Shown here: one piece after another, positions 35,178-61,289 of the stretch
How positions within the stretch are numbered: position 1 is the first letter of the stretch
Layout of the letters: each line of letters starts with the position of its first letter
Source: a virus
Direction: 5' to 3' (one strand)
Virus record (IMG/VR): IMGVR_UViG_3300033143_002031
Span: 96,001-160,000 of that record
DNA length: 64,000 bases
Notes under the pieces: model-generated
Told to the model about the DNA's origin: nothing
Database searches by the model: none
Seen by the model: only the letters and a program-made list of their open reading frames with translations
Made by a program: the position numbers and the translations under genes

Positions 35178-36040
35178 GCAACGTGGCGGCGATTGCGGAA
35201 CTTCCGGGATCGGAAGCGTGGGGCGCGAAGATACGAAAGCGAGCGCGAGCACTGGTCAAGACCATCGACCAGGGCTATATGGAGTTGGCGGAGATCCTCC
35301 ATACTGTCTGGGCCACCCCGATCAACAACGAGTCCCACAATGCCTGCGTCACCGTGGCGTGGGGTTACGAGAGCTACGTCCAGTGGGGCGAGGAGGAGCT
35401 AGGTCTCCACAAGCGCAAGATCGAGCGCTTGAAGGCCATATGGCACCACTTCCACATCACGCTGGGCGGAAAACTCGATCGCCCGACTCGGAAGAAGATC
35501 ATCGCGCTCGGATGGACTAAGGTCCGAGAGTTGATCCGCGTCATTGACGCGGATAACGCGGAGAAGTGGGTCGAAGTGGCAGAGCACCTGAACTACGACG
35601 AGTTGTGTGAGGCCATCCGTCGCGCGCTGGAAGCCCGAGAGAAGCACGACCAGGCGAGGGCGGTGGGCACCGCCGACGACGAGGACGACGACGAGTTCAA
35701 GGGGGCTCCCCCACCGGACGACGCGGACCGCTTCAAAAAGATGTGGTTCAACCTCACGCCCGAGCAGAAGGCCAACATCGAGATGGCCATCGGGCGCGCG
35801 AAGCAACTGGCAAACTCGGACAGGCCGGGGCACTGTCTGGACCTCATCTGTACCGACTTCCTGAGCACGAACGACTTCCGGAAGGCCGACGACCCCAACA
35901 GACACCTTATCTTCCTCGCCAAGTTCGAGCGACTGCTGGGCAAGAGACTCGTCGTGATCGACGCGGCGACGTGGGTGATCGAGTACGGCATGGATGCCCT
36001 GTCGAGGGCTGCCGAGGTCTTGGAGGCGAACGATGAGTGA
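35174..36040 (+). CDS. Hypothetical phage protein, possible HTH
   Basis: GTGA overlap; GC3-rich; helical pattern. Confidence 0.7.
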   Translation: MSNVAAIAELPGSEAWGAKIRKRARALVKTIDQGYMELAEILHTVWATPINNESHNACVTVAWGYESYVQWGEEELGLHKRKIERLKAIWHHFHITLGGKLDRPTRKKIIALGWTKVRELIRVIDADNAEKWVEVAEHLNYDELCEAIRRALEAREKHDQARAVGTADDEDDDEFKGAPPPDDADRFKKMWFNLTPEQKANIEMAIGRAKQLANSDRPGHCLDLICTDFLSTNDFRKADDPNRHLIFLAKFERLLGKRLVVIDAATWVIEYGMDALSRAAEVLEANDE

Positions 36041-36272
36041 TCTGAATCTGGTGCTACCCATAACCCCAGACAACCTGCACACCGAGTTGGAGCACATCGA
36101 GGCGACCGTCAAGAAGTGGCGGGAGTACATTGGCCAGGGCATTGTCGGGATCGACAAGCCGGCTCCGGACTCTGACGAGAAGCTGGACGCCTTCCTCCGG
36201 CAGTTTACCGGCGAGATGTTCTTTGTCGCTGGCAAGTGCCAGAACATGGCTGTCGTGCTGTCCGAGCGATGA
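36033..36272 (+). CDS. Hypothetical protein
   Basis: ATG 36033 after GGAGG; overlaps both neighbours. Confidence 0.55.
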   Translation: MSDLNLVLPITPDNLHTELEHIEATVKKWREYIGQGIVGIDKPAPDSDEKLDAFLRQFTGEMFFVAGKCQNMAVVLSER

Positions 36273-37090
36273 CCCATAAGAAGAAGCTAGAAGGCAGAAC
36301 GATCTTTGAGATGCTGGACCCGACCCTTCTGGACAACAACCCTTGGAATCCGAACACGCTGGATCAGGACGACTTCAATCGGCTTGTGAGCGAGATCGAG
36401 GACGTAGGATTTATAGCTCCTGTGCAGGTCATCCCAGTCGATGGTGGGAGGTATCGGATCATCGGAGGAGAGCACCGCGTCGCGGCGGCTGTGGACCTAC
36501 GTCTTCCTTCTATTCCGGCCATGGTGCTCGATGGACCACGCTGGAAGGATGAAGACCTCCAGAAGCTCGTCACGGTGCGCCTGAATGTCCTGAGAGGGAA
36601 GCTCAACCCGGACAAGATGGCGCTGCTCTATCACCAGATGGCGAAGAGGTACGGAGAGGACGCTCTCCAGAGCCTCTTCGCCTACACGGACACGCACGGC
36701 TGGGACAAGTTGGTCAGCGGGATCAAGCAGGGCCTCTCGAAGGCGGCGCTGCCGAAGGACAAGCAGAAGGAGTTTGCTGAGAAGGCGAAGGAAGCCAAGA
36801 CCCTGAAAGACCTCGAACGCATCCTCAACGAACTGTGGTCGAGCTACGGGGACACGGTGCAGCTATCCTTCATGGTCTTCACCTACGGCAAGCGGGAGCA
36901 CTTCTACATCGCCATGGATAAGAAGACCCGGGAGGCGGTCAGGCGCATCGGAGACCACTGCAAGGGCCACGCGAAAGACATCAACACCGTCCTCGGTCCG
37001 GCACTCCAAGCGCTCGCTGACGTCCTCGACAAGAGCGAGTCGAAGAAGACCTCCAAGGCGAAGCCCCAGCAAGATGACGTCGGCTTCTGA
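36269..37090 (+). CDS. ParB/Srx N-terminal-domain protein
   Basis: NPWNPN, GFIAPV.V, YRIIGGEHRV.AA. Confidence 0.82.
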   Translation: MTHKKKLEGRTIFEMLDPTLLDNNPWNPNTLDQDDFNRLVSEIEDVGFIAPVQVIPVDGGRYRIIGGEHRVAAAVDLRLPSIPAMVLDGPRWKDEDLQKLVTVRLNVLRGKLNPDKMALLYHQMAKRYGEDALQSLFAYTDTHGWDKLVSGIKQGLSKAALPKDKQKEFAEKAKEAKTLKDLERILNELWSSYGDTVQLSFMVFTYGKREHFYIAMDKKTREAVRRIGDHCKGHAKDINTVLGPALQALADVLDKSESKKTSKAKPQQDDVGF

Positions 37091-37139
37091 CCTGTGGTAC
37101 TCCTAAACTCGGCCGAGAGATCGGTAGGGGTAGACGACC

Positions 37140-40100
37140 ATGGGCATGTTGAGCGAGGCCATTCCGCACACTTCAGGGCTCCTCGTAGAGGCCCCGAAGG
37201 CGCCGAACCCGGAGAAGTTCGTTCCGGTGTTCTCGTGGACCATGAAGCGTGTCTGGGTGTGGGTGAAGAAGGGCGGCAAGGTCTTTGGCCCCACAGAGAT
37301 CCCTCACGGCCAGGTCAAGAAGTACAAGGGAAAGCTCGGGTGGCTCCCGACAAAGACTGAGTACGTAGCGCTCTTGGACCCGAGCGCCTACACCGGCCCA
37401 GACGACCTGTACCCCCCGGGCTGGAAGTACGGGGATTCACTGGACACGTCCACGTTCGTGGGCAAGCCTGTGGACATTCCGATCCTGGCGAAATTTGAAC
37501 CGCTGGTGAAGCCCAAGGCGAAGAAGAAGGCCCCGAAGCTACCACCTGAGTTCACCCTCACGGGCAAAAAGGACCCCCATGGATTCCCCACGGTCGACGA
37601 CGACACCTCCGGAGATGTGTTTTCGATCCTCCCTGACGGACGTGTCATGGAGTTCGACCCTGACGACGGGCTCTACTACGAGGTGAAGAAGGAGGGAGCC
37701 ACCTGGTTCACTCAGGCCGCCCCCACCTACTCGCCCGCCGACCTGAAGCCGGGGCCAGCCATAAAGCCAAAGGCGAAGCCGCAGCCGATGGAGCCTCCGG
37801 AGGACTTCGAGCTACCTCCGAACTACACGATCAAGAAAGTCACGCCGTCGCATGTGGTCGCCATAACGCCGGACGGCACGGACGTGAAGTGGATCAAGGT
37901 CACGAACCATTGGGTCCACGCTGACGACCCCACAAAGGACCACGAGCCCCTTCAGTCCGCGACTCTCAAGACCAAGACCAAGACCAAGGCCAAGGCCAAA
38001 TCCAAGGCCCAGTCAAAGAACCCGTTCAAGGTCACCACGAAGAAGAAGCCCGGGGCGCCGTCGAAGAAGTACAGCACCAAGAAGGGCAAGCCCTCCACGA
38101 AAGCTCCGGAGCAGGAGAAGGTCGTTGCGCCTCACGCCGAACTGGCGCCTCACCTCACCAAGTACACGGGTCAGGTCGATGTGAACGGCCTCCCGCTCGT
38201 GGACGAAGTGATGGAGGTGGCTTCCGACGATGAGCAGGTGGCGAAGGGCCTGACGCTCATGCCGGACGACCGTGTGGCCCGATGGCGCCCGGACAGTGGC
38301 GTCTACCTGCTCTACGACTACGATCCCTACTACGGGTTTATGTTCTCGAAGTCGGGGGAGACCGTCTCCCCGGACGAGGCCAAGAAACTCATGACGGTCT
38401 TGTCCCTGACGGTCAAGAACGGCCGCTATCACCAGTTCCAGAACGTGGGGGCGGACAAGGCCCAGCCGTCCACCTACAGCGTGCCCTTGCCGAACGACTG
38501 CAAGTCGATCTCGCAGAAGGACACGAACGGCCTTCCCATGGTGGAGTCGATCCCAACCGACGATATGGACGACAACCACAAGTTGACGCTCCTCCCCGAC
38601 AGCCGCCTGGCCAGGTGGGACCCGCTGTCGATTCAGTACCTCGTGTGGGAATGGAGGGACATCCTCGGGGACTACAACTACTACCCGACCCACCCGACCG
38701 TGTACGTCACCTTGAAGGAGGTCAAGAAACTCCAGGCTCAGGTGCCCTCTGTGCCCGTCAGCACCCCCGTGGAGCCTCCGGAGTGGAAGCCCAAGGCGAA
38801 GCCCAAGGCGAAGCCCAAGGCGAAGCCTACGGGCGCCCTGGAGCCCGCAAACGCCAAGGACCCCAGGGGCTACCCTGTCGGGCTGTACAAGGGCAGCACG
38901 TATGCCATTCTGCCGGACGGCAAGGTCGGCGTCTGGTCCAAAGCGAACGGCGCCTACGTGCTCCACCAGTATGACGCGCTCGGGGACAGCTACTACAACT
39001 CGGGCTACATGTGGACTCCCCCGGGGATGCACCAAGCCCTGGCCCCGGACCACGGTACTTTCAGTGCTACCTTGGCCCATGTCGTGGACCACGACGGGAA
39101 GTCGGTCCTGGTGCTCCCGAACGGGAAGTTTGCCGAGCACAAGTACATCGACGGCAAGTCCAAGATCGTCATCTACAAGGCCGACCCGGCGCAGGGGAAG
39201 AAGTTCGTTCCGACCGGAGAGATACTCGACCCATCGGACCTGAAGGACGTGATAGGGGAGCCTGACTACAAGACCCTGAAGCCCACGGGTGAGGTGGATG
39301 ACAACGGCCTCCCAACCTACAAGGTTGTGCAGGGAGACTCCAAGCACCTGAAGCCCTTGGCGATGCTCCCGAACGGCTCCATGGCGGCGTGGAACCCCAA
39401 GGCGAAGACATACCGCCTGATGGAGTTTGACCCGCAGTTCGCGGTGTGGGAATTGTCCTTCCCGAAGGAGACATTCGATCTCAGCGACATCGACGCGATG
39501 TATCTGAAGTCCGGGGTCACCCCGATATCTGAGCCGCCGGCCCCCGCGAAGGCGATGACCCCTCTGGTGCCGGCGAAGGCAGTGAAGTCGGACGAGCCCG
39601 AGGCACCAAAGAAGCCCCCGAAGATGCCGGCAGCGGCGGCGTTCGTCACTCCGCAGGCCGACCTCCCCGACCCCGACACGCTGGAGGACATCGGGTCGGC
39701 CGGGATGAAGGGTGCCGGAGCCAAGACGCGACTCAAGGACCCGGACACAGGCAAGCTCTATCTGTTCAAGCCGTCGATACCGAAGAGCGGCCCGAAGAAG
39801 ACGCAGGCGTTCCGCGCCAAGTCGCAGGAGGGTTTCGCCGCCGTGGCGGCCGTAGCTCGCCCGGATGCCTATGTCCCTGTCGAGACGGTGAAGTACAAGG
39901 GGCAACTCGGGACGCTCCAACCGATGTTGGACCTGGACCCGAATCAGGAAGACCTCGCGGGCGTGGCGCCCGAGGAGTTGACGGAGCAGCAGAAGCAGGA
40001 CGTCGCCGAAGAGCACCTGCTCGATTGGCTCATGTCCCAGCACGATTCCTTCGCCGCAAACTTCGTCATCACGAAGGAGGGCCGCGTCGTCGGGATCGAC

Positions 40101-42203
40101 AAGGAACAGGGCTGGAAGTACGTCGGTCACAAGTCCCACCCCGACGAGTTGAGTACGGAGTACCGACCCAACAGCGACCTCTACGGCGAGCAGGAGCCCT
40201 ACTACAACAAGTTCTGGCGGGCGTTCGGCGGCGGCACGATGGACTTCGATCCGAAGTCCATGAACAGCGCCCTCAAAAAGCTGGAACAGATGCCCGTCGA
40301 GACCTTGACCAAGGCCCTGGAGGGGTACGCGGCCACGAACAAAAAGATGCTCGGAGCGGACAAGGAATACGAGCGCTACGCTTTCGTGAAGAAGATGGTC
40401 TCTCGCCGGGCGACGCTGCGTCGGGACTTCGAGGAGTTCATCACGGAGAAGTACGTGAAGCGCGAGGGCGAGACCGGGAAGTTTACGTTCGCGGCGGGGT
40501 GGGTGAGCGACGCCTCGGAGGCGGCCGGGCCGCAGTCCACATTCCAGGAGGTCTCGGACACCCTCCGAGGGCTCATCCTGAAGCATCTCGGCTCGAACGC
40601 CCTGAAGCCGCACAAGTCGGACCCGGACCTCACGGTCGTGCGTGTCCAGAATATGGAGCCGATCACAAAGGTCACGGAGTACCTCCAAGAACTAGGTGTC
40701 GAGGTGGTGGGAGAGCCGAAGATGGGCTCGAACTACAACATGGTGTTCGTGAAGAGCGGTGACCTCGACAAGACGATCACCAAGACGATCGAGATCAAGT
40801 CCGAACCAGGGCAGAAGTACCAGGACTTCAAGGGCTCCCCGACGTACCAGTCTGAGGCGTTCGCGCCCCAAGAGGCTCCTGCCAACATCGACGAGATCAT
40901 CACGGTCGAGCAGGACCACCTGGGCCACGTCGGGAAGCAGTTCACCCTGGACGGCAAGGCTGTGGAAGGGCAGTCAGCTAGCATTCAGAGGGTCATCCTC
41001 ACGAACGGGAAGAAGGCCCACGTCGTCCACTTCAAACTCCGGAAGCCCTACTGGAAGGACATCACCGGGGGCGAGCCTGGCGAGTACAAGTGGCACCTCG
41101 GCGCCTACGACGAGGGCGAGGACGCGGTGCGTTACTCGTCGAGCGGGGGGCACTCTGAGAAGGCGCTCGTCTTCAAGGGGCCGAAAGGTTCGGAGATGTT
41201 CGTGCTCGGGCCGAAGGTGGACCACTCACACTACGGCAACAAAGCCAGTTACTCCTTCCAGGGGTCGGTGTACGCGATCATCCCTGAAGGGGCTGGGAAG
41301 GTGAAGACGGTTCTGAAGAAGCTGCTCGATGAGATCGGACTCGCGAAGGAGGTTCTGAAGAAGCCGAGCAAGTCGGACGTCGAACTGTTCCATCTATCGC
41401 AGGCGCTCTGGTCGGTCTCCCCGAAGGTCCACGACAAACTCATCGAGGATGACGTTGAGTTGACGATCCCCCTTCTGAAGAAGAAGCTGAAGGGCAAGTT
41501 GAAGAAGGACGAGATCGAGGCCATTCGCACAGTCCAAGGCCCACTCGGAAGGGCGTCGGCGATCATCCCAGGTCGGTGGAAGACGCTCGGAGGCGGGACC
41601 GAGGACGACCCGGTGGTCCGGTTCCCGTTCTGGCAGGTGGACAACCCTAGCAAGGTGGCCAACATACTCAAGACCGGAGGCGTAGGCGCTCACGAGCGGA
41701 TGCGGATGGGGCTTGGTACTGGGGGCTCGTCGGTCCACTCCGACATGGAGACCGGCGGCTCGGACAACGTGACCACGCGGATCGCGATGAAGGACCACTA
41801 CGGCTCGATGGACCAGGGAAATGTCCAGGGCGCTATCAAACTCGTCATCGCACCGGAACTCCTGGACCGGCTTGACGTTCACCTTGCGCGGGGGGACTCC
41901 TACGGGGCCACCAAGCCTGGGCATTCGTCGTTCTACGACAACCGGAAGGGGCTGAGCAGCGCGGTCAAGGCGGAGAACGCAAGCAAGCACTCGAACACGG
42001 AACTGGTCTTGCGGCGTGGGTTCCCGGCCTCCATGATCAAGCGCATTGCGACGGGGGGCGAGAGCACGCGGAAGAAGGTTCTGGCAGCCCTGGATAACGC
42101 CGGCATCACCGAGCACAATGGGGTGCCCATCGAGGATTTCGTGGTCGTTGAAACGGATCAGAAGGCTATGTACACCAAGTACCTGAAGCCGCTGGGGTAC
42201 TGA
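37140..42203 (+). CDS. 1687-aa multidomain protein: about 7 short repeats, HipA/PI3-4K-like kinase domain, putative ART-fold C-terminal domain
   Basis: Repeats of D.NG.P...L.(L/M)PD.R.A.W; kinase motifs GMKGAG, YLFKP, DWLMSQHDSFAAN, VVGIDKE; C-terminal NILKTGG...TELVLRRGFPASMIKRI. Confidence 0.7.
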   Translation: MGMLSEAIPHTSGLLVEAPKAPNPEKFVPVFSWTMKRVWVWVKKGGKVFGPTEIPHGQVKKYKGKLGWLPTKTEYVALLDPSAYTGPDDLYPPGWKYGDSLDTSTFVGKPVDIPILAKFEPLVKPKAKKKAPKLPPEFTLTGKKDPHGFPTVDDDTSGDVFSILPDGRVMEFDPDDGLYYEVKKEGATWFTQAAPTYSPADLKPGPAIKPKAKPQPMEPPEDFELPPNYTIKKVTPSHVVAITPDGTDVKWIKVTNHWVHADDPTKDHEPLQSATLKTKTKTKAKAKSKAQSKNPFKVTTKKKPGAPSKKYSTKKGKPSTKAPEQEKVVAPHAELAPHLTKYTGQVDVNGLPLVDEVMEVASDDEQVAKGLTLMPDDRVARWRPDSGVYLLYDYDPYYGFMFSKSGETVSPDEAKKLMTVLSLTVKNGRYHQFQNVGADKAQPSTYSVPLPNDCKSISQKDTNGLPMVESIPTDDMDDNHKLTLLPDSRLARWDPLSIQYLVWEWRDILGDYNYYPTHPTVYVTLKEVKKLQAQVPSVPVSTPVEPPEWKPKAKPKAKPKAKPTGALEPANAKDPRGYPVGLYKGSTYAILPDGKVGVWSKANGAYVLHQYDALGDSYYNSGYMWTPPGMHQALAPDHGTFSATLAHVVDHDGKSVLVLPNGKFAEHKYIDGKSKIVIYKADPAQGKKFVPTGEILDPSDLKDVIGEPDYKTLKPTGEVDDNGLPTYKVVQGDSKHLKPLAMLPNGSMAAWNPKAKTYRLMEFDPQFAVWELSFPKETFDLSDIDAMYLKSGVTPISEPPAPAKAMTPLVPAKAVKSDEPEAPKKPPKMPAAAAFVTPQADLPDPDTLEDIGSAGMKGAGAKTRLKDPDTGKLYLFKPSIPKSGPKKTQAFRAKSQEGFAAVAAVARPDAYVPVETVKYKGQLGTLQPMLDLDPNQEDLAGVAPEELTEQQKQDVAEEHLLDWLMSQHDSFAANFVITKEGRVVGIDKEQGWKYVGHKSHPDELSTEYRPNSDLYGEQEPYYNKFWRAFGGGTMDFDPKSMNSALKKLEQMPVETLTKALEGYAATNKKMLGADKEYERYAFVKKMVSRRATLRRDFEEFITEKYVKREGETGKFTFAAGWVSDASEAAGPQSTFQEVSDTLRGLILKHLGSNALKPHKSDPDLTVVRVQNMEPITKVTEYLQELGVEVVGEPKMGSNYNMVFVKSGDLDKTITKTIEIKSEPGQKYQDFKGSPTYQSEAFAPQEAPANIDEIITVEQDHLGHVGKQFTLDGKAVEGQSASIQRVILTNGKKAHVVHFKLRKPYWKDITGGEPGEYKWHLGAYDEGEDAVRYSSSGGHSEKALVFKGPKGSEMFVLGPKVDHSHYGNKASYSFQGSVYAIIPEGAGKVKTVLKKLLDEIGLAKEVLKKPSKSDVELFHLSQALWSVSPKVHDKLIEDDVELTIPLLKKKLKGKLKKDEIEAIRTVQGPLGRASAIIPGRWKTLGGGTEDDPVVRFPFWQVDNPSKVANILKTGGVGAHERMRMGLGTGGSSVHSDMETGGSDNVTTRIAMKDHYGSMDQGNVQGAIKLVIAPELLDRLDVHLARGDSYGATKPGHSSFYDNRKGLSSAVKAENASKHSNTELVLRRGFPASMIKRIATGGESTRKKVLAALDNAGITEHNGVPIEDFVVVETDQKAMYTKYLKPLGY
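38787..38822 (+). repeat. Three copies of a 12-nt tandem repeat (KPKA)
   Basis: AAGCCCAAGGCG x3, encoding a basic linker. Confidence 0.9.
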
Positions 42204-42204
42204 C

Positions 42205-43398
42205 ATGTCACTGGACTTCAACACCGTCTACAAACTCAGGCTCGGGAGCGACCCGGCTCACCCCGAGATCGTCATGGCTCCTGTGCCGCTCCCTGCGGGG
42301 AAGGGGTGGTGGGTCCGTCGCACCTCTCCAGACCATCCGGAACGCATCCTCCGAGGCGACACGTTCGAGGGGGAGGGTGGGAAGGTCGTCGTGGTGACTA
42401 AGGACGGCCCAGCCACCTTCGAGCCTCTGACGCTGGACCTGTGGAAGGGGATGAACCCTTCCGATTCCTCCCACCTGCCGTTCGACTCGGATGGCGATTT
42501 GCAGGAGTTTTACTGGCACGATTGGATGACGGCCTCGGAGGAGACCGGGGTGGGGGACATCGACTCGATCTCCAAGGCCCTCGCCATTCAGTACGGGGCT
42601 GAGATACAGGAGGGCCGTAAAGCCAAGCCTGGCGAGGTCCACCAGTGGAGCGACGGCTCCTACCTGAAGCTGCGCGATGGCACCTGGCAGAAGATACCCG
42701 GCACGGAGCCCGCCGCCGAGGGCGCGGAGATAATGGCCGAGACGATCACGCGACTGAATGGGATGGTCGGAAGCGGCGAGTTGGCTCCCGGGATGGACAT
42801 TCAGGACCACATCGACCAGGCCCGTGGCGTCGTGGACGCGCATAGGAAGGGTGTGGTCGCGTTCGGCGCGAAGCTGGAGGAGATGGCCGGGGGTGGCGCG
42901 AATGTCCAGGGCCGGGTGAAAACTCTCGGCTCGGTCCTCGGGAAGATCGCTACCAAGCCGCACTGGTTCAAAAAGGCGGATGACGTGCAGGACGGCACAG
43001 GCTACCGGATCATCCACGACAGCCTAGACGACGTGACGCGCTCCGTCGGGAAGATCAAGAAACAGTTCAAGGTGAAGGCGGAGCGGGACTACATCTCGAA
43101 CCCGCAGGGCAGCTACCGATCGCACCACCTGATCGTGGAGGACGAAGACGGCCTGGAGAAAGAGATCCAGGTCCGGACGCGCCGGCAGCACGAGATGGCG
43201 GAGTGGTCGCACGACGTGTTCAAGCCACGGACGTCAGAGCAGAAGAAGAAGGTCGACGCCAACCGCAAAGAGATCGAGAAGACCCAGGCGAAGATTGCCG
43301 AGTGGGCATACGAGAAAGACAAGGGCAAGGACCCCGGCCCCCAGCCGGAGTGCCCCGAGCAGGTGTCCAACGCAGTCGGGTGCCGATCACTAGGGTGA
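42205..43398 (+). CDS. Small alarmone synthetase (RelA/SpoT nucleotidyltransferase domain) with long N-terminal extension
   Basis: GRVK...S..GK, D.TGYRI, YISNP..SYRSHH, EIQVRT..QH..AEWSH. Confidence 0.88.
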   Translation: MSLDFNTVYKLRLGSDPAHPEIVMAPVPLPAGKGWWVRRTSPDHPERILRGDTFEGEGGKVVVVTKDGPATFEPLTLDLWKGMNPSDSSHLPFDSDGDLQEFYWHDWMTASEETGVGDIDSISKALAIQYGAEIQEGRKAKPGEVHQWSDGSYLKLRDGTWQKIPGTEPAAEGAEIMAETITRLNGMVGSGELAPGMDIQDHIDQARGVVDAHRKGVVAFGAKLEEMAGGGANVQGRVKTLGSVLGKIATKPHWFKKADDVQDGTGYRIIHDSLDDVTRSVGKIKKQFKVKAERDYISNPQGSYRSHHLIVEDEDGLEKEIQVRTRRQHEMAEWSHDVFKPRTSEQKKKVDANRKEIEKTQAKIAEWAYEKDKGKDPGPQPECPEQVSNAVGCRSLG

Positions 43399-43403
43399 GG
43401 ACG

Positions 43404-43628
43404 ATGGCGAAGAAGACAGACATGGAGAAGCGGCTCGAAGCGAAGGCGAAGATGATCCCGAAGGAGGGGTTCAACCTCGTCGGGTTCGACGACTTCGAGG
43501 AGCCTGGAGATGAGCTACACCTGGCGGCGCGATTCGACACGCACGAAGAGGCCGACGCCGCCATGAAGAAGCGGATGAAAGACGACCCGAGCCAGCGCTT
43601 CTTCATCTACGGCCCCGACGACCACTAG
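43404..43628 (+). CDS. Small protein downstream of the SAS (possible antitoxin)
   Basis: ATG 43404 after GAGG, 5 nt after the SAS stop; 74 aa. Confidence 0.6.
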   Translation: MAKKTDMEKRLEAKAKMIPKEGFNLVGFDDFEEPGDELHLAARFDTHEEADAAMKKRMKDDPSQRFFIYGPDDH

Positions 43629-43967
43629 CCATGCCTGGCACGTCCGTGTTGGCTGCGATCGTCCCTCCTCGCGTGTGGCTGCGACGGAGTTTGTGACCGC
43701 CCTCACCGACAACGGTATCGAGGCTCGCGTCGTCGGGCTGTGGGCTGCCAAAGTGATGACTCCGCTGGGGCGTGAGAGCAGGGTTGCGGGTGCGCTCGTA
43801 GCTGCTATTCTGTCGGTCGATCTGAGGCGTACTCGCGCGCACGCGAAACTGCTCGGGGTGCGCCTGCTAGCCCTTGAAATAAACGGATGCCCTTCAAGAG
43901 CAAACGTGGTATAGTCCCAACTATGGATGTTGGGAGCGATCACTCCCAAGGATAAGGAGATCGGACG

Positions 43968-44429
43968 ATGGCTGATTCAAAAGTCGCAGGTGTCGCCGCA
44001 GCCGTGAAGAAGGCCAAGGGGAAGCCAGTGAAGAAGCGCGGCGAGGCAAAGGCGAAGCCCCACAAGGTGACCAAGCCGAGGAAGAAGAAGGCCGCCGCGA
44101 AGAAGGCGCCCCCGAAGAAGACTGCTGAGAAGAAGACCCCGACGAGCGGTCAGAGCGCTCCGTCCATAGAGCTTTCCACGGACGGTCTCAACACGAAGGA
44201 GGACAAGGTCTTCGCCGCGCTCAACGGCCCCGGTTCGGGCGTGCGGACGATCCTGACCATCGCGGAACTGTCGGAGACGTGCTTCAAGTCGCGCGGGAGG
44301 CGGCAGGCCAACTCGTGGACCCGGAACTCGCTTCGGCGCCTCGTGCAGGCCGGGCTCGTGGAGAAGGTCGCACGTGGCAAGTACCGCGTGTCGGAAGCCG
44401 GCCGTAAGAAGCTGGCCCGCGCCGCGTAG
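43968..44429 (+). CDS. Lys/Ala-rich tail plus winged-helix DNA-binding protein (linker-histone-like)
   Basis: N-terminal KKAKGKPVKK..KKKAAAKKAPPKK; C-terminal wHTH TIAELS..RNSLRRLVQAGLVEKVARGKYRV. Confidence 0.72.
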   Translation: MADSKVAGVAAAVKKAKGKPVKKRGEAKAKPHKVTKPRKKKAAAKKAPPKKTAEKKTPTSGQSAPSIELSTDGLNTKEDKVFAALNGPGSGVRTILTIAELSETCFKSRGRRQANSWTRNSLRRLVQAGLVEKVARGKYRVSEAGRKKLARAA

Positions 44430-57830: not shown

Positions 57831-58022
57831 ACAGCGTATTCCTCGGGGAGACGGGAAGTGGTAGGGATGGAGAAGAGTCCAGTGAAGCGTCAGACTCGAA
57901 GCGTAGGAGGATCGCGTTCGGGGCTGGATTTCACTGTCGACCTTCCCAAGACGAGCATACGGTCCGACGCCAGTCTGGACCGTGGGCCGTTCCGGTCCAA
58001 CTTCCGCTGGAAGGTGTCATGA
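57768..58022 (+). CDS. Arg-rich 84-codon -1-frame extension (or a standalone 51-aa ORF from ATG 57867); not in ORF track
   Basis: RVRRRLRALALRKGRTTRRRRTAYSSGRREVVGMEKSPVKRQ...FRWKVS; the stop overlaps the protease start (ATGA). Confidence 0.6.
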   Translation, partial: RVRRRLRALALRKGRTTRRRRTAYSSGRREVVGMEKSPVKRQTRSVGGSRSGLDFTVDLPKTSIRSDASLDRGPFRSNFRWKVS

Positions 58023-59722
58023 TGGGACAATTGACTGCGACTTCCCCATCCACCGAGAACCAGTTGATCGACGAGCAGGTTCACCCCTGCAAGCTCGAAC
58101 TGGTCGAGGGGGAAGGCGAGAAGAAGGGCCGCGTGTTTGCACGTGGGGAGTTCGGCCATGCGGTCAACCCCACAGCGAACGGACGCCGATACCGGCACAA
58201 CATCTGGGAGAACAATTTCTCTCGCCTCCAGTCGAACCTGGAGTCCAAAAAGGTGCTGGGCGAACTCGACCACCCCACGGATGGGCGCACGGCACTGCAA
58301 CGCGCTTCGCACGTTATCACCGGCCTCCGCTTGGAGGACGACAAGGTGATGGGTGAGGCCGAGATCCTCGACACGGCCAAGGGCCGAGACCTGAAGGCGA
58401 TCCTCGCGGCGGGTGTTCCGGTGGGCATCAGTTCCCGTGGTTTCGGGAGCACCAAGCCGGGCAAGGACGGCATCGAGGAAGTCCAGGAGGACTACAAACT
58501 CGTCACCTTCGATTTCGTGGCTGAACCAGCCGACCCGTCGGCCTATCCCGAGGTGGTCTTCGAGAGCGCCGAAGAGGGCGCGGCCATGATGTTCGAGGGT
58601 GTGGCCTTCGAGACGGCCGAGCCGGAAGGTGCTTCTGAGGGTGAGGACGAGGGCGATGACGAAAACGTCGCTCCTGTCGTAGGTTCAGCACCTCCGGGCG
58701 AGGCAGAGATGGCCAAGCGCTTCGGAGAGAAGGTGGCTGCCGAGGCTGCCGCTGCGCCGAAGTCCGCCGAGGCAGAGATGGCCGCGCGGTTCGCCGCGAA
58801 GGTTCTGTCCGACGCCGAGGGAAACGATGTCTCGGTCGAAGACCTCCGGCAGGAGTTTGCGGACCAGATCGTAGATCGTATCGCTGCCCTCCGGGGTGAC
58901 GTCGAGAAGCAGGTTCGCGCTGAGATGGCAGCGGACCCCGCAGTTGCAGGTGCGAGAGCGGCCTTGGAAGACGTGCAGCGGGCGTTGCTCCCGTTCGCCC
59001 TGACCGAGGATGCCCACGCGCTGGTCGCAGAGCGCGACGATGAGATACACGCGCTCCGGTCCAAGCTCGAAGAGGTGGAGCAGACGATCGAGCAGCACGA
59101 GACGCTGATCGAAACGCTCACCGAGGCGGCTCGGGAGGCAGGCTACAGGTACCACCTGGAGTGCTTGCTCCATGAGGATGACGCAGAGATCGAGCGGCTT
59201 CGCGTGATCGTTGGGGATGTCTCGCAGTACGACTCCCCGGATGCGCTTCGCACTCGTGTCGAAGAGGCGTATCAGGAGATGCAGACGTTCCGTATCGAAG
59301 AGGAGCGTGTGCAGCAACAACGGTCGGAGGAATCTGATCGTCTACGCGGCAAGAACCAGGCATTGGCGGAGGGGCTGGAGAAAGCCCTCGTCGCCAACCG
59401 GGACCTGGCTCTACAGGTCTACGCATCCAAGAGGTTGCAAACTCACCCTCAAGGTGCGAAGATCCTCCGCATGCTCGAACGATCAGGGCTTCAGTCCCAG
59501 GAGCAAGTGGATGCACTGATCGAGGACTTCCGTGAGCCGAAGCGCGACGCGGACGACCTCGAAGCAGTGCGTGCTCGCGTTCGTGCTCAACTGCATGGTG
59601 GGGCGGAGTATCTCGAAGAAGACACGCAACCCTCTGGGCCGCGTGGTAGTGGATCGAAGGACTACAATGGTCTCGGAGCGTCCCTGGCTGACTTGAAACA
59701 CCTGGCAGGACTGCGAGACTGA
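58019..59722 (+). CDS. Prohead protease (T4 gp21-like) fused to a scaffold-like coiled coil
   Basis: N.NGR.Y, LGELDHP, ASH.I, GEAEILDT..G, VGISSRG.GS, FDFVAEP; acidic coiled-coil C-terminal half. Confidence 0.9.
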   Translation: MMGQLTATSPSTENQLIDEQVHPCKLELVEGEGEKKGRVFARGEFGHAVNPTANGRRYRHNIWENNFSRLQSNLESKKVLGELDHPTDGRTALQRASHVITGLRLEDDKVMGEAEILDTAKGRDLKAILAAGVPVGISSRGFGSTKPGKDGIEEVQEDYKLVTFDFVAEPADPSAYPEVVFESAEEGAAMMFEGVAFETAEPEGASEGEDEGDDENVAPVVGSAPPGEAEMAKRFGEKVAAEAAAAPKSAEAEMAARFAAKVLSDAEGNDVSVEDLRQEFADQIVDRIAALRGDVEKQVRAEMAADPAVAGARAALEDVQRALLPFALTEDAHALVAERDDEIHALRSKLEEVEQTIEQHETLIETLTEAAREAGYRYHLECLLHEDDAEIERLRVIVGDVSQYDSPDALRTRVEEAYQEMQTFRIEEERVQQQRSEESDRLRGKNQALAEGLEKALVANRDLALQVYASKRLQTHPQGAKILRMLERSGLQSQEQVDALIEDFREPKRDADDLEAVRARVRAQLHGGAEYLEEDTQPSGPRGSGSKDYNGLGASLADLKHLAGLRD

Positions 59723-59780: not shown

Positions 59781-61289
59781 GTGGAAGCTCGACAGATGCT
59801 TCAGGAAGAGGGTCGTCGAACGATCGCCGACCAGAGCTACGTCGGGGCCTTGATCCGGAAGTGGGGAGACTTCCTGGAGGGCCTCGCCGATCGATCCGAG
59901 CAGGACAGGTACATCCTCGGATGCACCGCCATGCTCATGGAGAACGAGAGCCTCTGGCTCCAGTCTCTCACGGAGGAGACGCGCACGGTGAACGTCGGTT
60001 CGTTCACCAAGTTCATCTTCCCCGTTTTGAGGCGAGTTTTCCCGAACCTCATCGCCAACGAGATCGTCTCGGTCCAGCCGATGACGGCCCCGATCGGTGC
60101 TGTCTTCTTCCTCGACTACGTGTACGGTTCGACCAAGGGCGGCACGACCGAGGGGAACGTGTTCCCACGTGACTTCGATCGTGACTACTCCAGCGAGTAC
60201 GTCAACGGCGAGTCGATGGTGACCGGCGATGGCGTCAACTTCGGTGGTGGTGGTGGTGCGCTCGACCTCACCGGGACCCTCGCGTGGACCCCGGTTCGGC
60301 CCCTCGATGCTGCTCGTGAGTTCTCGTGCGCCATCCGGGAGGTTTCGGCGGCGGACGGGTCGACCGTGCAGGAGGCCGTCGACGATGGGGCGGGCGGCTT
60401 CACGTTCACCCCGGCCGGTGGACTCACTTCAGGCTCGATCAACTACGCGAACGGCGCGGTGACTGGGTTCCAGTTCCAGAACATCCCCGCCCTCGGGAAC
60501 CAGGTCAAGGCGTACTACTACTTCGACGGGGAACTCAACACCAAGGTTCCCGAGATCAAGCTCGACATCAAGAAGGCGCCGGTCGAGGCCAAGCCGCGTC
60601 GACTCAAGGCCCTGTGGTCGAGCGAGGCGGCGGAAGACCTCCGTGCGTTCCACGGTCTCGACGCCGAGACCGAGATCGTGTCGATCATCGCTCAGGAGAT
60701 CGCGCTGGAGATCGACCGCGAGATCATCAACGACCTCTTCCTGGCTTCGACGGGGACCACCGGCACGTTCGACCGCATCCCGCCCGGTGGCATCTCGGAG
60801 ATCGACCACATCCGAGCGCTGATCACGCAGATCAGCACCGTCTCGAACCTCATCCACAAGAAAACCCTCCGCGCCCCGGCGAACTGGATCATCACGAGCC
60901 CCGAAATCTCGGCGCTCCTGACCCAGTTGACCACGCACGGCGACTTCAAGCCGATCTGGTCGTCGGACATGAACCCGAACTCGCCGACCGACGTACCTCG
61001 GCCGCGCACGGCGCATGGGCAGTTCTCGATCTACAAGACCGGGACGCTCATGAACAAGTGGGTCGTCTACGAAGATCCCTTCTTCACGACCAACAAGATG
61101 ATGGTCGGTCTGAAGGGCGGCAGCTTCCTGGAGTCCGGCTACTGCTGGGCGCCCTACGTGCCCCTCCAGGTCACGCCGACCTTCCTCGATCCGAGCGACT
61201 TCAGCTTCCGCAAGGGCCTCCGGACCCGCTACGCGAAGAAGCTGCTTCGCCCGGACTTCTACGGCCAGTTGACGATCAACAACCTGTAG
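59781..61289 (+). CDS. Major capsid protein, T4 gp23-like
   Basis: RRVFPNLIANEIVSVQPMTAP.G..F, RLKA.WS.EAAEDL.AFHGLDAE.E, EIDREII, APYVPL, G..TRY. Confidence 0.96.
   Translation: MEARQMLQEEGRRTIADQSYVGALIRKWGDFLEGLADRSEQDRYILGCTAMLMENESLWLQSLTEETRTVNVGSFTKFIFPVLRRVFPNLIANEIVSVQPMTAPIGAVFFLDYVYGSTKGGTTEGNVFPRDFDRDYSSEYVNGESMVTGDGVNFGGGGGALDLTGTLAWTPVRPLDAAREFSCAIREVSAADGSTVQEAVDDGAGGFTFTPAGGLTSGSINYANGAVTGFQFQNIPALGNQVKAYYYFDGELNTKVPEIKLDIKKAPVEAKPRRLKALWSSEAAEDLRAFHGLDAETEIVSIIAQEIALEIDREIINDLFLASTGTTGTFDRIPPGGISEIDHIRALITQISTVSNLIHKKTLRAPANWIITSPEISALLTQLTTHGDFKPIWSSDMNPNSPTDVPRPRTAHGQFSIYKTGTLMNKWVVYEDPFFTTNKMMVGLKGGSFLESGYCWAPYVPLQVTPTFLDPSDFSFRKGLRTRYAKKLLRPDFYGQLTINNL

Follow-up and report, generated by a model that had tools for sequence, protein, structure and literature searches.

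A giant kinase and DarT-like protein beside a polymorphic toxin slot in an uncultured T4-type phage: candidate cargo of the phage head

Proteins that a phage injects together with its DNA are at work before expression of its genes begins; to our knowledge, few of them are known outside T4, P1, N4 and phiKZ-like phages. In T4, Alt, the internal proteins and shell proteins are directed to the prohead by N-terminal propeptides of 7–65 residues, which are afterwards cleaved off; the protease gp21 cuts after L/I-x-E, and Alt is ejected into the host, as are the internal proteins (PMC9026906). In phages and conjugative elements, polyvalent proteins join kinases, ADP-ribosyltransferases (ARTs), RelA/SpoT domains, Zeta-like kinases, ParB-like and MuF domains, and their delivery with the DNA has been predicted (PMC5512222). 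MuF polymorphic toxins carry ART and, frequently, RelA-like domains together with small immunity open reading frames (ORFs) (PMC5576092), and include the (p)ppApp synthetase Apk2 with IapK (PMC12226406). The locus analysed here lies in a stretch of 64,000 nucleotides (the window; bases 96001–160000 of the 184.7-kb viral record IMGVR_UViG_3300033143_002031, estimated completeness 88%, GC about 62%) from an uncultured T4-type phage of ~185 kb. It encodes a ParB-like protein, a protein of 1687 residues with kinase and DarT-like ART domains (the giant protein), a small alarmone synthetase of the RelA/SpoT type and a 74-residue protein (the partner), all on the + strand and tightly packed (Table 1). 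The best explanation of the giant protein and the synthetase, and one that we consider somewhat likely, is that they are cargo of the phage head and are processed by the prohead protease. The strategy as such has been described before, for T4 Alt and the internal proteins, polyvalent proteins and MuF toxins; the present architecture and the N-terminal tag described below have not. An earlier note on this DNA, made from the sequence alone, did not recognise the combination as a described one. In this it went too far, as kinase, ART, RelA/SpoT and Zeta domains together with small immunity ORFs are already known from polyvalent proteins (PMC5512222) and MuF toxins (PMC5576092, PMC12226406).

The giant protein, its leader and the prohead protease

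The giant protein begins with LSE-A at residues 4–7 and LVE-A at residues 15–18. The earlier note had read these sites, together with IQE (residues 134–136) of the synthetase, shortly before KPGEVHQW at 141, as marks of a prohead protease, and all of them are present. Homologues of the giant protein came from two sets (36 metagenomic homologues and 42 IMG/VR loci). The motif [LIVM]xE[AGS] occurs within the first 60 residues of 26 of 34 giant homologues, compared with 88 of 965 sequence windows (9%) elsewhere in the same proteins. As a control, homologues of neighbouring genes from the same lineage were inspected, and the leader motif was found in 7–15% of them (4/27 for ParB and 2/28 for PolA). 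The nominal binomial p-value for the leader motif is 8e-21, a figure that overstates independence because the giant homologues are related and not independent samples. Judged from these counts, the enrichment is not due to chance. The leaders of the giant homologues are 10–45 residues long, vary in length and sequence, and end in [LIVM]xE[AGS]. Of 13 close homologues, 12 have LVE-A, and outside the folded domains of the giant protein no other [LIM]xE is conserved; the leader site is retained even in giants whose following domain differs. Internal [LIM]xE sites at the domain borders are not conserved, and therefore give no support for a giant protein that is cut into separate enzymes.

The phage encodes a protease of the gp21 type, as the earlier note had also held: the Peptidase_S77 match (PF03420) has an E-value of 2e-20, over the curated cut-off, with the domain at window positions ~58121–58567. 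A putative N-terminal propeptide ending in L/I-x-E (LVE-A) is thus found in a phage with a gp21-type protease. The protease ORF comprises 567 residues, has a long C-terminal extension past the protease domain, and contains LVE-G at residues 28–31 plus several further [LIVM]xE[AGS] sites; the extension and the protein's own sites suggest a protease-scaffold fusion with self-processing. The major capsid protein, whose nearest cultured-phage relatives are merely 26–35% identical, carries LME (residues 52–54) and LTE (residues 63–65) within ~15 residues of the cleavage point expected from alignment to the N-terminus of mature T4 gp23. These sites are consistent with gp21-type cleavage, if not decisive.

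With T4 Alt and IPI–III the locus shares a T4-type head, a gp21-family protease, a short leader that ends in L/I-x-E and is often followed by Ala, a putative effector-enzyme cargo that includes an ADP-ribosyltransferase, and genes that lie outside the head cluster. The leaders of the window, however, have no sequence similarity to the capsid targeting sequence (CTS) of T4, and the putative cargo would be a multi-enzyme protein of 1687 residues, as opposed to proteins of 76 kDa or 8–20 kDa in T4. Moreover, the ART of the window is DarT-like and not Alt-type, and no match to ADPrib_exo_Tox (R-S-E) was found.

No match for the giant protein was obtained in Pfam (E ≤ 0.1), NCBIfam or PADLOC. The PHROGs gave one weak match (phrog_30433, unknown function, E 0.0038), a profile of 28 giant homologues retrieved none of the PDB sequences at E ≤ 10, and tblastn against cultured phages yielded an overlap of only 11%, in the kinase region, with five Mycobacterium prophages. 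Domains were assigned from an AlphaFold model of residues 880–1687 (built from 28 sequences; pLDDT 87.6, pTM 0.82), which was compared with known folds by Foldseek and an exhaustive VIA search. The kinase domain matched PI4K-II (VIA Z 12.3, 198 aligned residues, root-mean-square deviation 3.6), H. pylori CtkA (Z 10.7–10.8) and Legionella LepB (Z 9.8), with HipA, Fam20 and CotH at lower scores. The fold has the ATP-binding Lys, the catalytic D....N loop and the metal-binding Asp of atypical kinases, and the motifs (the Lys of YLFKP, the catalytic loop SQHDSxxxN, and G(I/V)DKE) are conserved in giant homologues; the Pfam PI3_PI4_kinase family gave no match in the giant protein. The catalytic loop (window 40035–40060, giant residues 966–974) has the sequence SQHDSFAAN in the window and in close relatives of the phage, and SQHDSHxxN in distant ones. 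The kinase region also matches gp54 of the Mycobacterium prophage McProf, which is annotated as a fusion of a minor capsid protein and an ADP-ribosyltransferase, and similar kinase domains are found in portal-fused viral proteins. In a distant giant homologue of 2254 residues (L033:6743-13507 = L010:839-7603), two tandem kinase-like regions were detected by BLAST to the window kinase.

The C-terminal domain of the giant protein matched E. coli DarT1 (8baq; VIA Z 11.4, 165 of 208 residues, root-mean-square deviation 3.3), followed by Thermosipho DarTG (Z 11.1–11.2), Thermus DarT (Z 9.4–9.6) and M. tuberculosis DarT (Z 9.2–9.3); the next ART-fold class, Tpt1, reached only Z 6.5. E1621 is invariant among the homologues and, from the aligned ranges rather than a superposition, would be the counterpart of the catalytic Glu of DarT (E152 in DarT1, E160 in DarT2). 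DarT of the DarTG systems is the best structural match, with an invariant Glu that would fall at the expected place. The domain has no sequence-level match to DarT and ends a phage protein of 1687 residues. Neither a DarG macrodomain nor a NADAR antitoxin was found adjacent to it, and the gene or domain downstream of the giant protein has no Pfam family. Overall, the identities of the kinase, ART and RelA/SpoT domains are secure, and we hold them with high confidence. The kinase and putative ART that the earlier note had placed in the giant protein are without sequence-family support and are borne out by the fold of the confident model. Its comparison of the ART with T4 Alt had to be abandoned, as the fold is that of a DarT-like nucleic-acid ADP-ribosyltransferase (VIA).

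Upstream of the kinase, residues 18–130 form a conserved basic domain (pI 9.8). Direct reading and a listing of motifs revealed five clear repeats centred on LPDG(R/K)...W after residue 130 and up to residue 845, with Lys/Pro/Ala-rich linkers between them. The fold searches returned mainly matches to the other domains and nothing informative for residues 1116–1478, and an Atlas feature search yielded no usable match for them. Like polyvalent proteins, the giant protein joins at least two conflict-type catalytic domains (kinase and ART) in one polypeptide. It differs from them in that no zincin-like metallopeptidase (MPTase) or MuF domain was found by Pfam (residues 18–845 and 1116–1478 are without an assigned fold), in that the prohead protease would process it at one site near the N-terminus, and in the position of the locus among replication genes and not late genes. 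In addition, no DarT occurs in the text of PMC5512222.

The synthetase, its partner and the toxin slot

That the third gene encodes a RelA/SpoT-type synthetase was noticed before, and the Pfam match, motifs and fold agree on this point. Pfam RelA_SpoT (PF04607) covers residues 236–337 (1.4e-18, 67.7 bits against a cut-off of 27); the motifs GRVK..S..GK, D..GxR, Y.S.H and E.Q.RT are invariant among homologues; and Foldseek returned RelQ/RelP at the top (TM-score by target 0.69–0.70), then CapRel (0.39–0.43). With intact synthetase motifs and no hydrolase domain the protein is a small alarmone synthetase. In the alignment of synthetase homologues, 12 of 15 have [LIM]xE in one column directly ahead of a basic mini-domain, and IQE 134–136 falls in that column. 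Shorter homologues open with leaders of 7–45 residues such as ...LTE-A. The module of LxE and mini-domain, a tag that is unannotated, is also found at the start of distant giant proteins and ahead of Zeta toxin domains. A profile of this module found no second carrier above threshold in the present genome, and a homologue search with synthetase residues 1–175 retrieved only the protein itself and one other (P0040).

Several members of the synthetase clade are joined to head proteins. The synthetase, accompanied by the partner, is fused to a portal protein in L014 (Phage_portal_3, 8.6e-78) and to MuF-like N-terminal parts in L019 (Phage_Mu_F, sub-threshold) and L012 (with InPase), and in the thaumarchaeal provirus Pro-Nvie1 the synthetase follows the portal gene. 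L014 is an unrelated 108-kb viral contig in which the synthetase forms the C-terminal domain of the portal protein (L014:5643-11313). In the next ORF of that contig a partner domain is joined to a long stretch rich in Ala, Lys and Glu and to a PI3_PI4_kinase domain (Pfam 28.7 bits, cut-off 27.1). A synthetase, a partner and a PI3/4K-like kinase are thus found together once more, with a head of another type. In a 171-kb virus (L013:7668-9604) two tandem synthetase genes precede the partner gene.

The 74-residue ORF has no match in Pfam, NCBIfam or PADLOC, and its frame has none among the PHROGs. A full profile search placed it in a family of 373 clusters at 50% identity. Homologues of 67–74 residues directly follow the synthetase in a TARA relative, in three unrelated large contigs and in Pro-Nvie1, and others accompany the synthetase in eight IMG/VR loci, inverted in one and fused in another. 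Four members were chosen by the partner only; each of them has a synthetase of the same clade just upstream, and the partner stood next to the synthetase in every locus checked. Its Atlas look-alikes are Nitrososphaerota hypotheticals. Going by this distribution, the ORF is not a chance frame, and it is a candidate immunity or antitoxin protein dedicated to the synthetase; the conserved adjacency confirms the small partner ORF that the earlier note had proposed. The obligate linkage and the precedent of toxins with immunity proteins (PMC5576092, PMC12226406) suggest that the partner may bind the synthetase. At L015:8630-8854 partner and synthetase genes converge instead of sharing an orientation. 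Several long proteins open with a 70-residue partner domain (P0071, P0092, P0113 and P0117, of 687–793 residues, and P0133). Four of them have a common conserved region without a Pfam match, and in P0133 the partner domain is joined directly to an LxE-type mini-domain. A kinase profile gave no match to these proteins.

The locus was compared with 42 related IMG/VR loci plus L004. The common gene order is a 288-residue gene, ParB, the giant protein, a variable slot, a winged-helix gene and PolA, with the ParB homologue upstream of the giant protein in most of the 42 loci. A profile of the N-terminal 'nd' domain of the synthetase protein showed that the gene directly after the giant protein encodes an acidic domain of ~140 residues in about 35 of the 42. 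This domain is fused to a Zeta toxin domain in L037, L039, L040/42, L043, L048 and L057/60 (Pfam 2.5e-19 and 1.4e-21 for L037 and L039, the others by an in-house Zeta profile), and LxE plus the mini-domain were detected between the two in L039, L043 and L057/60. It is a separate gene followed by synthetase and partner in L033/L044, and is fused to the synthetase in the window and in L004, which explains the '~200-aa N-terminal extension' noted earlier. Among ~45 related loci, synthetase and partner occur only in the window, L004 and L033/L044. The linkage of giant protein, synthetase and partner recurs in a lineage that is only ~30% identical (L010/L011 = L033/L044), the record of which has an S77 protease. 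From this comparison the locus is a conserved pair of giant protein and ~140-residue domain with a polymorphic toxin slot. The close linkage of the three genes claimed earlier thus holds for the window, L004 and L033/L044. It does not amount to a fixed cassette, as the core consists of ParB, the giant protein and the ~140-residue domain gene, and a Zeta toxin fills the slot elsewhere. Where the ~140-residue domain stands by itself, it may serve as a carrier, or it may inhibit the C-terminal ART of the giant protein.

MuF toxins resemble this arrangement in having an N-terminal delivery part, a swappable C-terminal toxin and a small downstream ORF (here the synthetase/Zeta slot and the 74-residue ORF), and relatives of the window synthetase are fused to MuF-like proteins (L019, L012). 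However, MuF toxins have been reported only from temperate phages, with the MuF head protein as the carrier, whereas here a leader or a ~130-residue domain with LxE is found in a T4-type phage; Pfam Phage_Mu_F matched neither the giant protein nor the synthetase protein. For the 74-residue partner, Pfam, NCBIfam and PADLOC offered no family. The toxSAS toxins (FaRel, PhRel, CapRel; PMC7229694, PMC11782079) share with the window a hydrolase-less synthetase with an adjacent small gene and a fold like CapRel/RelQ; the N-terminal tag, the head-protein fusions and the partner family found here differ from those of described toxSAS.

Packaging and its alternatives

The case for packaging is comparative, and the leaders, the aligned sites, the head-protein fusions and the protease gene together make it the best reading of the locus. 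The giant protein would be made with a leader of 17 residues, which the gp21-type protease would remove after L-V-E, as in T4 Alt and the internal proteins. The mature protein of ~185 kDa would then be carried in the head and pass into the next host together with the DNA. There its atypical kinase domain could phosphorylate host targets and its DarT-like domain could ADP-ribosylate host targets, most likely nucleic acid. The protein of the slot would be composed of the ~130-residue acidic domain, [LIM]xE, the basic mini-domain and a swappable toxin, which is a small alarmone synthetase here and a Zeta toxin or nothing in relatives. Cleavage at I-Q-E(136) would free the synthetase within the prohead. 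The partner would most likely bind and silence the synthetase in the producing cell and stay behind, so that the injected synthetase would be active and make (p)ppGpp or (p)ppApp, or pyrophosphorylate tRNA. The gene order, the domain folds, the catalytic motifs, the conservation of the sites, the obligate linkage of synthetase and partner, the head-protein fusions in other viruses and the protease gene are observed; cleavage, packaging, injection, substrates and partner binding are what we infer.

A number of observations weigh against packaging. The locus lies within a replication and recombination module (RecA, RuvC, SSB, ParB ... PolA), away from the head genes, and no late-promoter signal was found at it: the T4 late-promoter consensus TATAAATA gave two near-matches, which equals the chance expectation, and none upstream of the locus. 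The T4 alt and internal-protein genes also lie outside the head gene cluster, and the position of the locus is for that reason weak evidence. Near the N-terminus, [LI]xE[AG] is present in 14 of 164 long ORFs of the genome (8.5%), which is the background rate, so that the LxE motif alone identifies nothing. The earlier note's reading of LxE and IxE as prohead-protease marks gains comparative support from the conservation of aligned sites in diverged homologues and from the head-protein fusions elsewhere, and not from the motif as such. An S77 protease was detected in one of five other synthetase-bearing viral records and not in the remaining four; as four of the five records are incomplete, a link between S77 protease and synthetase is neither supported nor excluded. 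In most relatives the ~140-residue domain stands alone, which is odd for a pure targeting tag. Finally, the kinase loop of the window reads HDSFAAN where distant homologues have HDSHxxN, and this exchange of His for Phe, at a place where loops of the PI3/4K type have His, may affect activity.

Some of these observations would be expected if the enzymes were real and made in the infected cell along with the replication genes, without being packaged. The host would then be remodelled from within, as by T4 ModA/ModB or the T7 kinase, LxE would have another role and the 74-residue protein would tune the synthetase. In all relatives the locus lies amid RecA, RuvC, SSB, ParB and PolA genes, closely packed and in the same orientation as they are; together with the lack of a detectable late-type promoter and the ~140-residue domain that is on its own in most relatives, this fits intracellular action. 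Such an origin leaves unexplained why a variable LxE-A leader is kept across giants whose next domain differs, and why synthetases of this clade have been joined more than once to portal and MuF-like proteins. We regard it as unlikely, albeit a serious competitor.

The synthetase and the 74-residue ORF could also be an ordinary type II toxSAS or defence cassette, acting in superinfection exclusion or abortive infection against rival phages, that lies beside the giant protein by chance and is functionally unrelated to it. Their bicistronic layout, toxin then small ORF, is that of toxSAS modules (PMC7229694), the synthetase matches the candidate defence family PDC-S33 (2e-16), its fold is like CapRel as well as RelQ, and the cassette is missing in most relatives, as a mobile accessory gene would be. 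On the other hand, the phage that carries it is of the T4 type and shows, in those parts that were examined, no trace of lysogeny, and the cassette bears the same LxE plus mini-domain tag as the giants and Zeta toxins of the lineage. The cassette is, moreover, fused to the resident downstream domain in the window and in L004 and to portal and MuF-like proteins elsewhere, and is linked to the giant gene in two lineages that are ~30% identical. A cassette unrelated to the giant protein is improbable. That the findings are in part artefacts, spurious high-GC ORFs or chance motifs, has next to no probability and is effectively refuted: long spurious frames do arise at high GC (e.g. the 891-residue antisense ORF at 38013–40688) and LxE is a short motif, but all four proteins have many homologues, conserved domains and synteny, the structure models are confident and the leader motif is enriched about eightfold.

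Packaging of the giant protein and the synthetase can be extended to a more general proposal, which is possible yet distinctly tentative. A T4-type lineage would possess a general loading tag (a short leader or ~130-residue acidic domain, [LIM]xE and basic mini-domain) for polymorphic injected toxins, i.e. the alarmone synthetase, Zeta and the giant kinase with DarT-like ART. Prohead cleavage would double as the release of the toxin from its inhibitor or carrier, and the DarT-like domain would ADP-ribosylate host DNA on entry. If the locus does encode head cargo, the signature of leader or carrier domain, LxE and mini-domain predicts such cargo in uncultured T4-type phages, and the locus provides a phage-borne DarT-like enzyme fused to an atypical kinase. 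Alarmone-synthetase and Zeta toxins would move between MuF, portal and leader-based delivery, and the locus would add a partner family of 373 clusters that spans bacterial viruses to thaumarchaeal proviruses.

Features and surroundings of the locus

The four genes reported by the earlier note are present, and their positions are listed in Table 1 with those of the assigned domains and of the head genes.

Table 1. Positions of genes and protein segments in the window. The remarks give the assignment or the match on which it is based.
Feature	Position	Strand	Remarks
ParB-like (ParB_N) gene	36269–37090	+	Pfam ParB_N 1.6e-9; PHROG 26387 'ParB-like partition nuclease' 5e-54
Giant protein ORF, 1687 aa	37140–42203	+	
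Giant residues 1–17	37140–37190	+	acidic leader ending L-V-E; predicted prohead-protease propeptide, cut before A18
Giant residues 18–845	37191–39674	+	basic N-terminal domain and repeats; no Pfam match
Giant residues 846–1115	39675–40484	+	atypical PI3/4K-, CtkA-, HipA-like kinase domain
Giant residues 1116–1478	40485–41573	+	conserved alpha/beta and beta domains, modelled; pLDDT mostly >85
Giant residues 1479–1687	41574–42203	+	DarT-like ADP-ribosyltransferase domain
Synthetase ORF (RelA/SpoT), 397 aa	42205–43398	+	start 1 nt past giant stop
Synthetase residues 1–130	42205–42594	+	acidic 'nd' domain; separate ~140-aa gene in most relatives
Synthetase residues 134–166	42604–42702	+	IQE site, then basic mini-domain (K..P.G.V..W ... 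G.W..P)
Synthetase residues 174–397	42724–43398	+	small alarmone synthetase core and conserved C-terminal tail (CP..V...GC)
Partner ORF, 74 aa	43404–43628	+	5 nt past synthetase gene
gp21-type prohead protease, Peptidase_S77 with long C-terminal extension	58019–59722	+	predicted processing enzyme; PF03420
T4-type Gp23-family major capsid protein	59781–61289		PF07068 2e-74; adjoins protease

A megablast search of positions 36000–44000 against cultured phages gave zero matches. Downstream of the 74-residue ORF a gap of 340 nt is followed by the winged-helix gene and then DNA polymerase A. The gap (window 43629–43967) measures 86 nt in the relative L004, and holds a GTG frame of 79 residues (43675–43914). 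Its predicted RNA fold is unremarkable (z −0.88). Scans for sigma-70 promoters and terminators and a comparison of the upstream regions by eye gave nothing informative, and no convincing promoter or terminator was seen at the gap. The 891-residue antisense ORF inside the giant gene (window 38013–40688, − strand) is almost certainly a high-GC artefact, because the + frame holds the homologues and the confident model. Probable inteins were noticed in relatives: PolA has 1193 residues in L004 (L004:15780-19361) compared with 598 in the window, and Intein_splicing matches the T4-type portal encoded on the P0010 contig.

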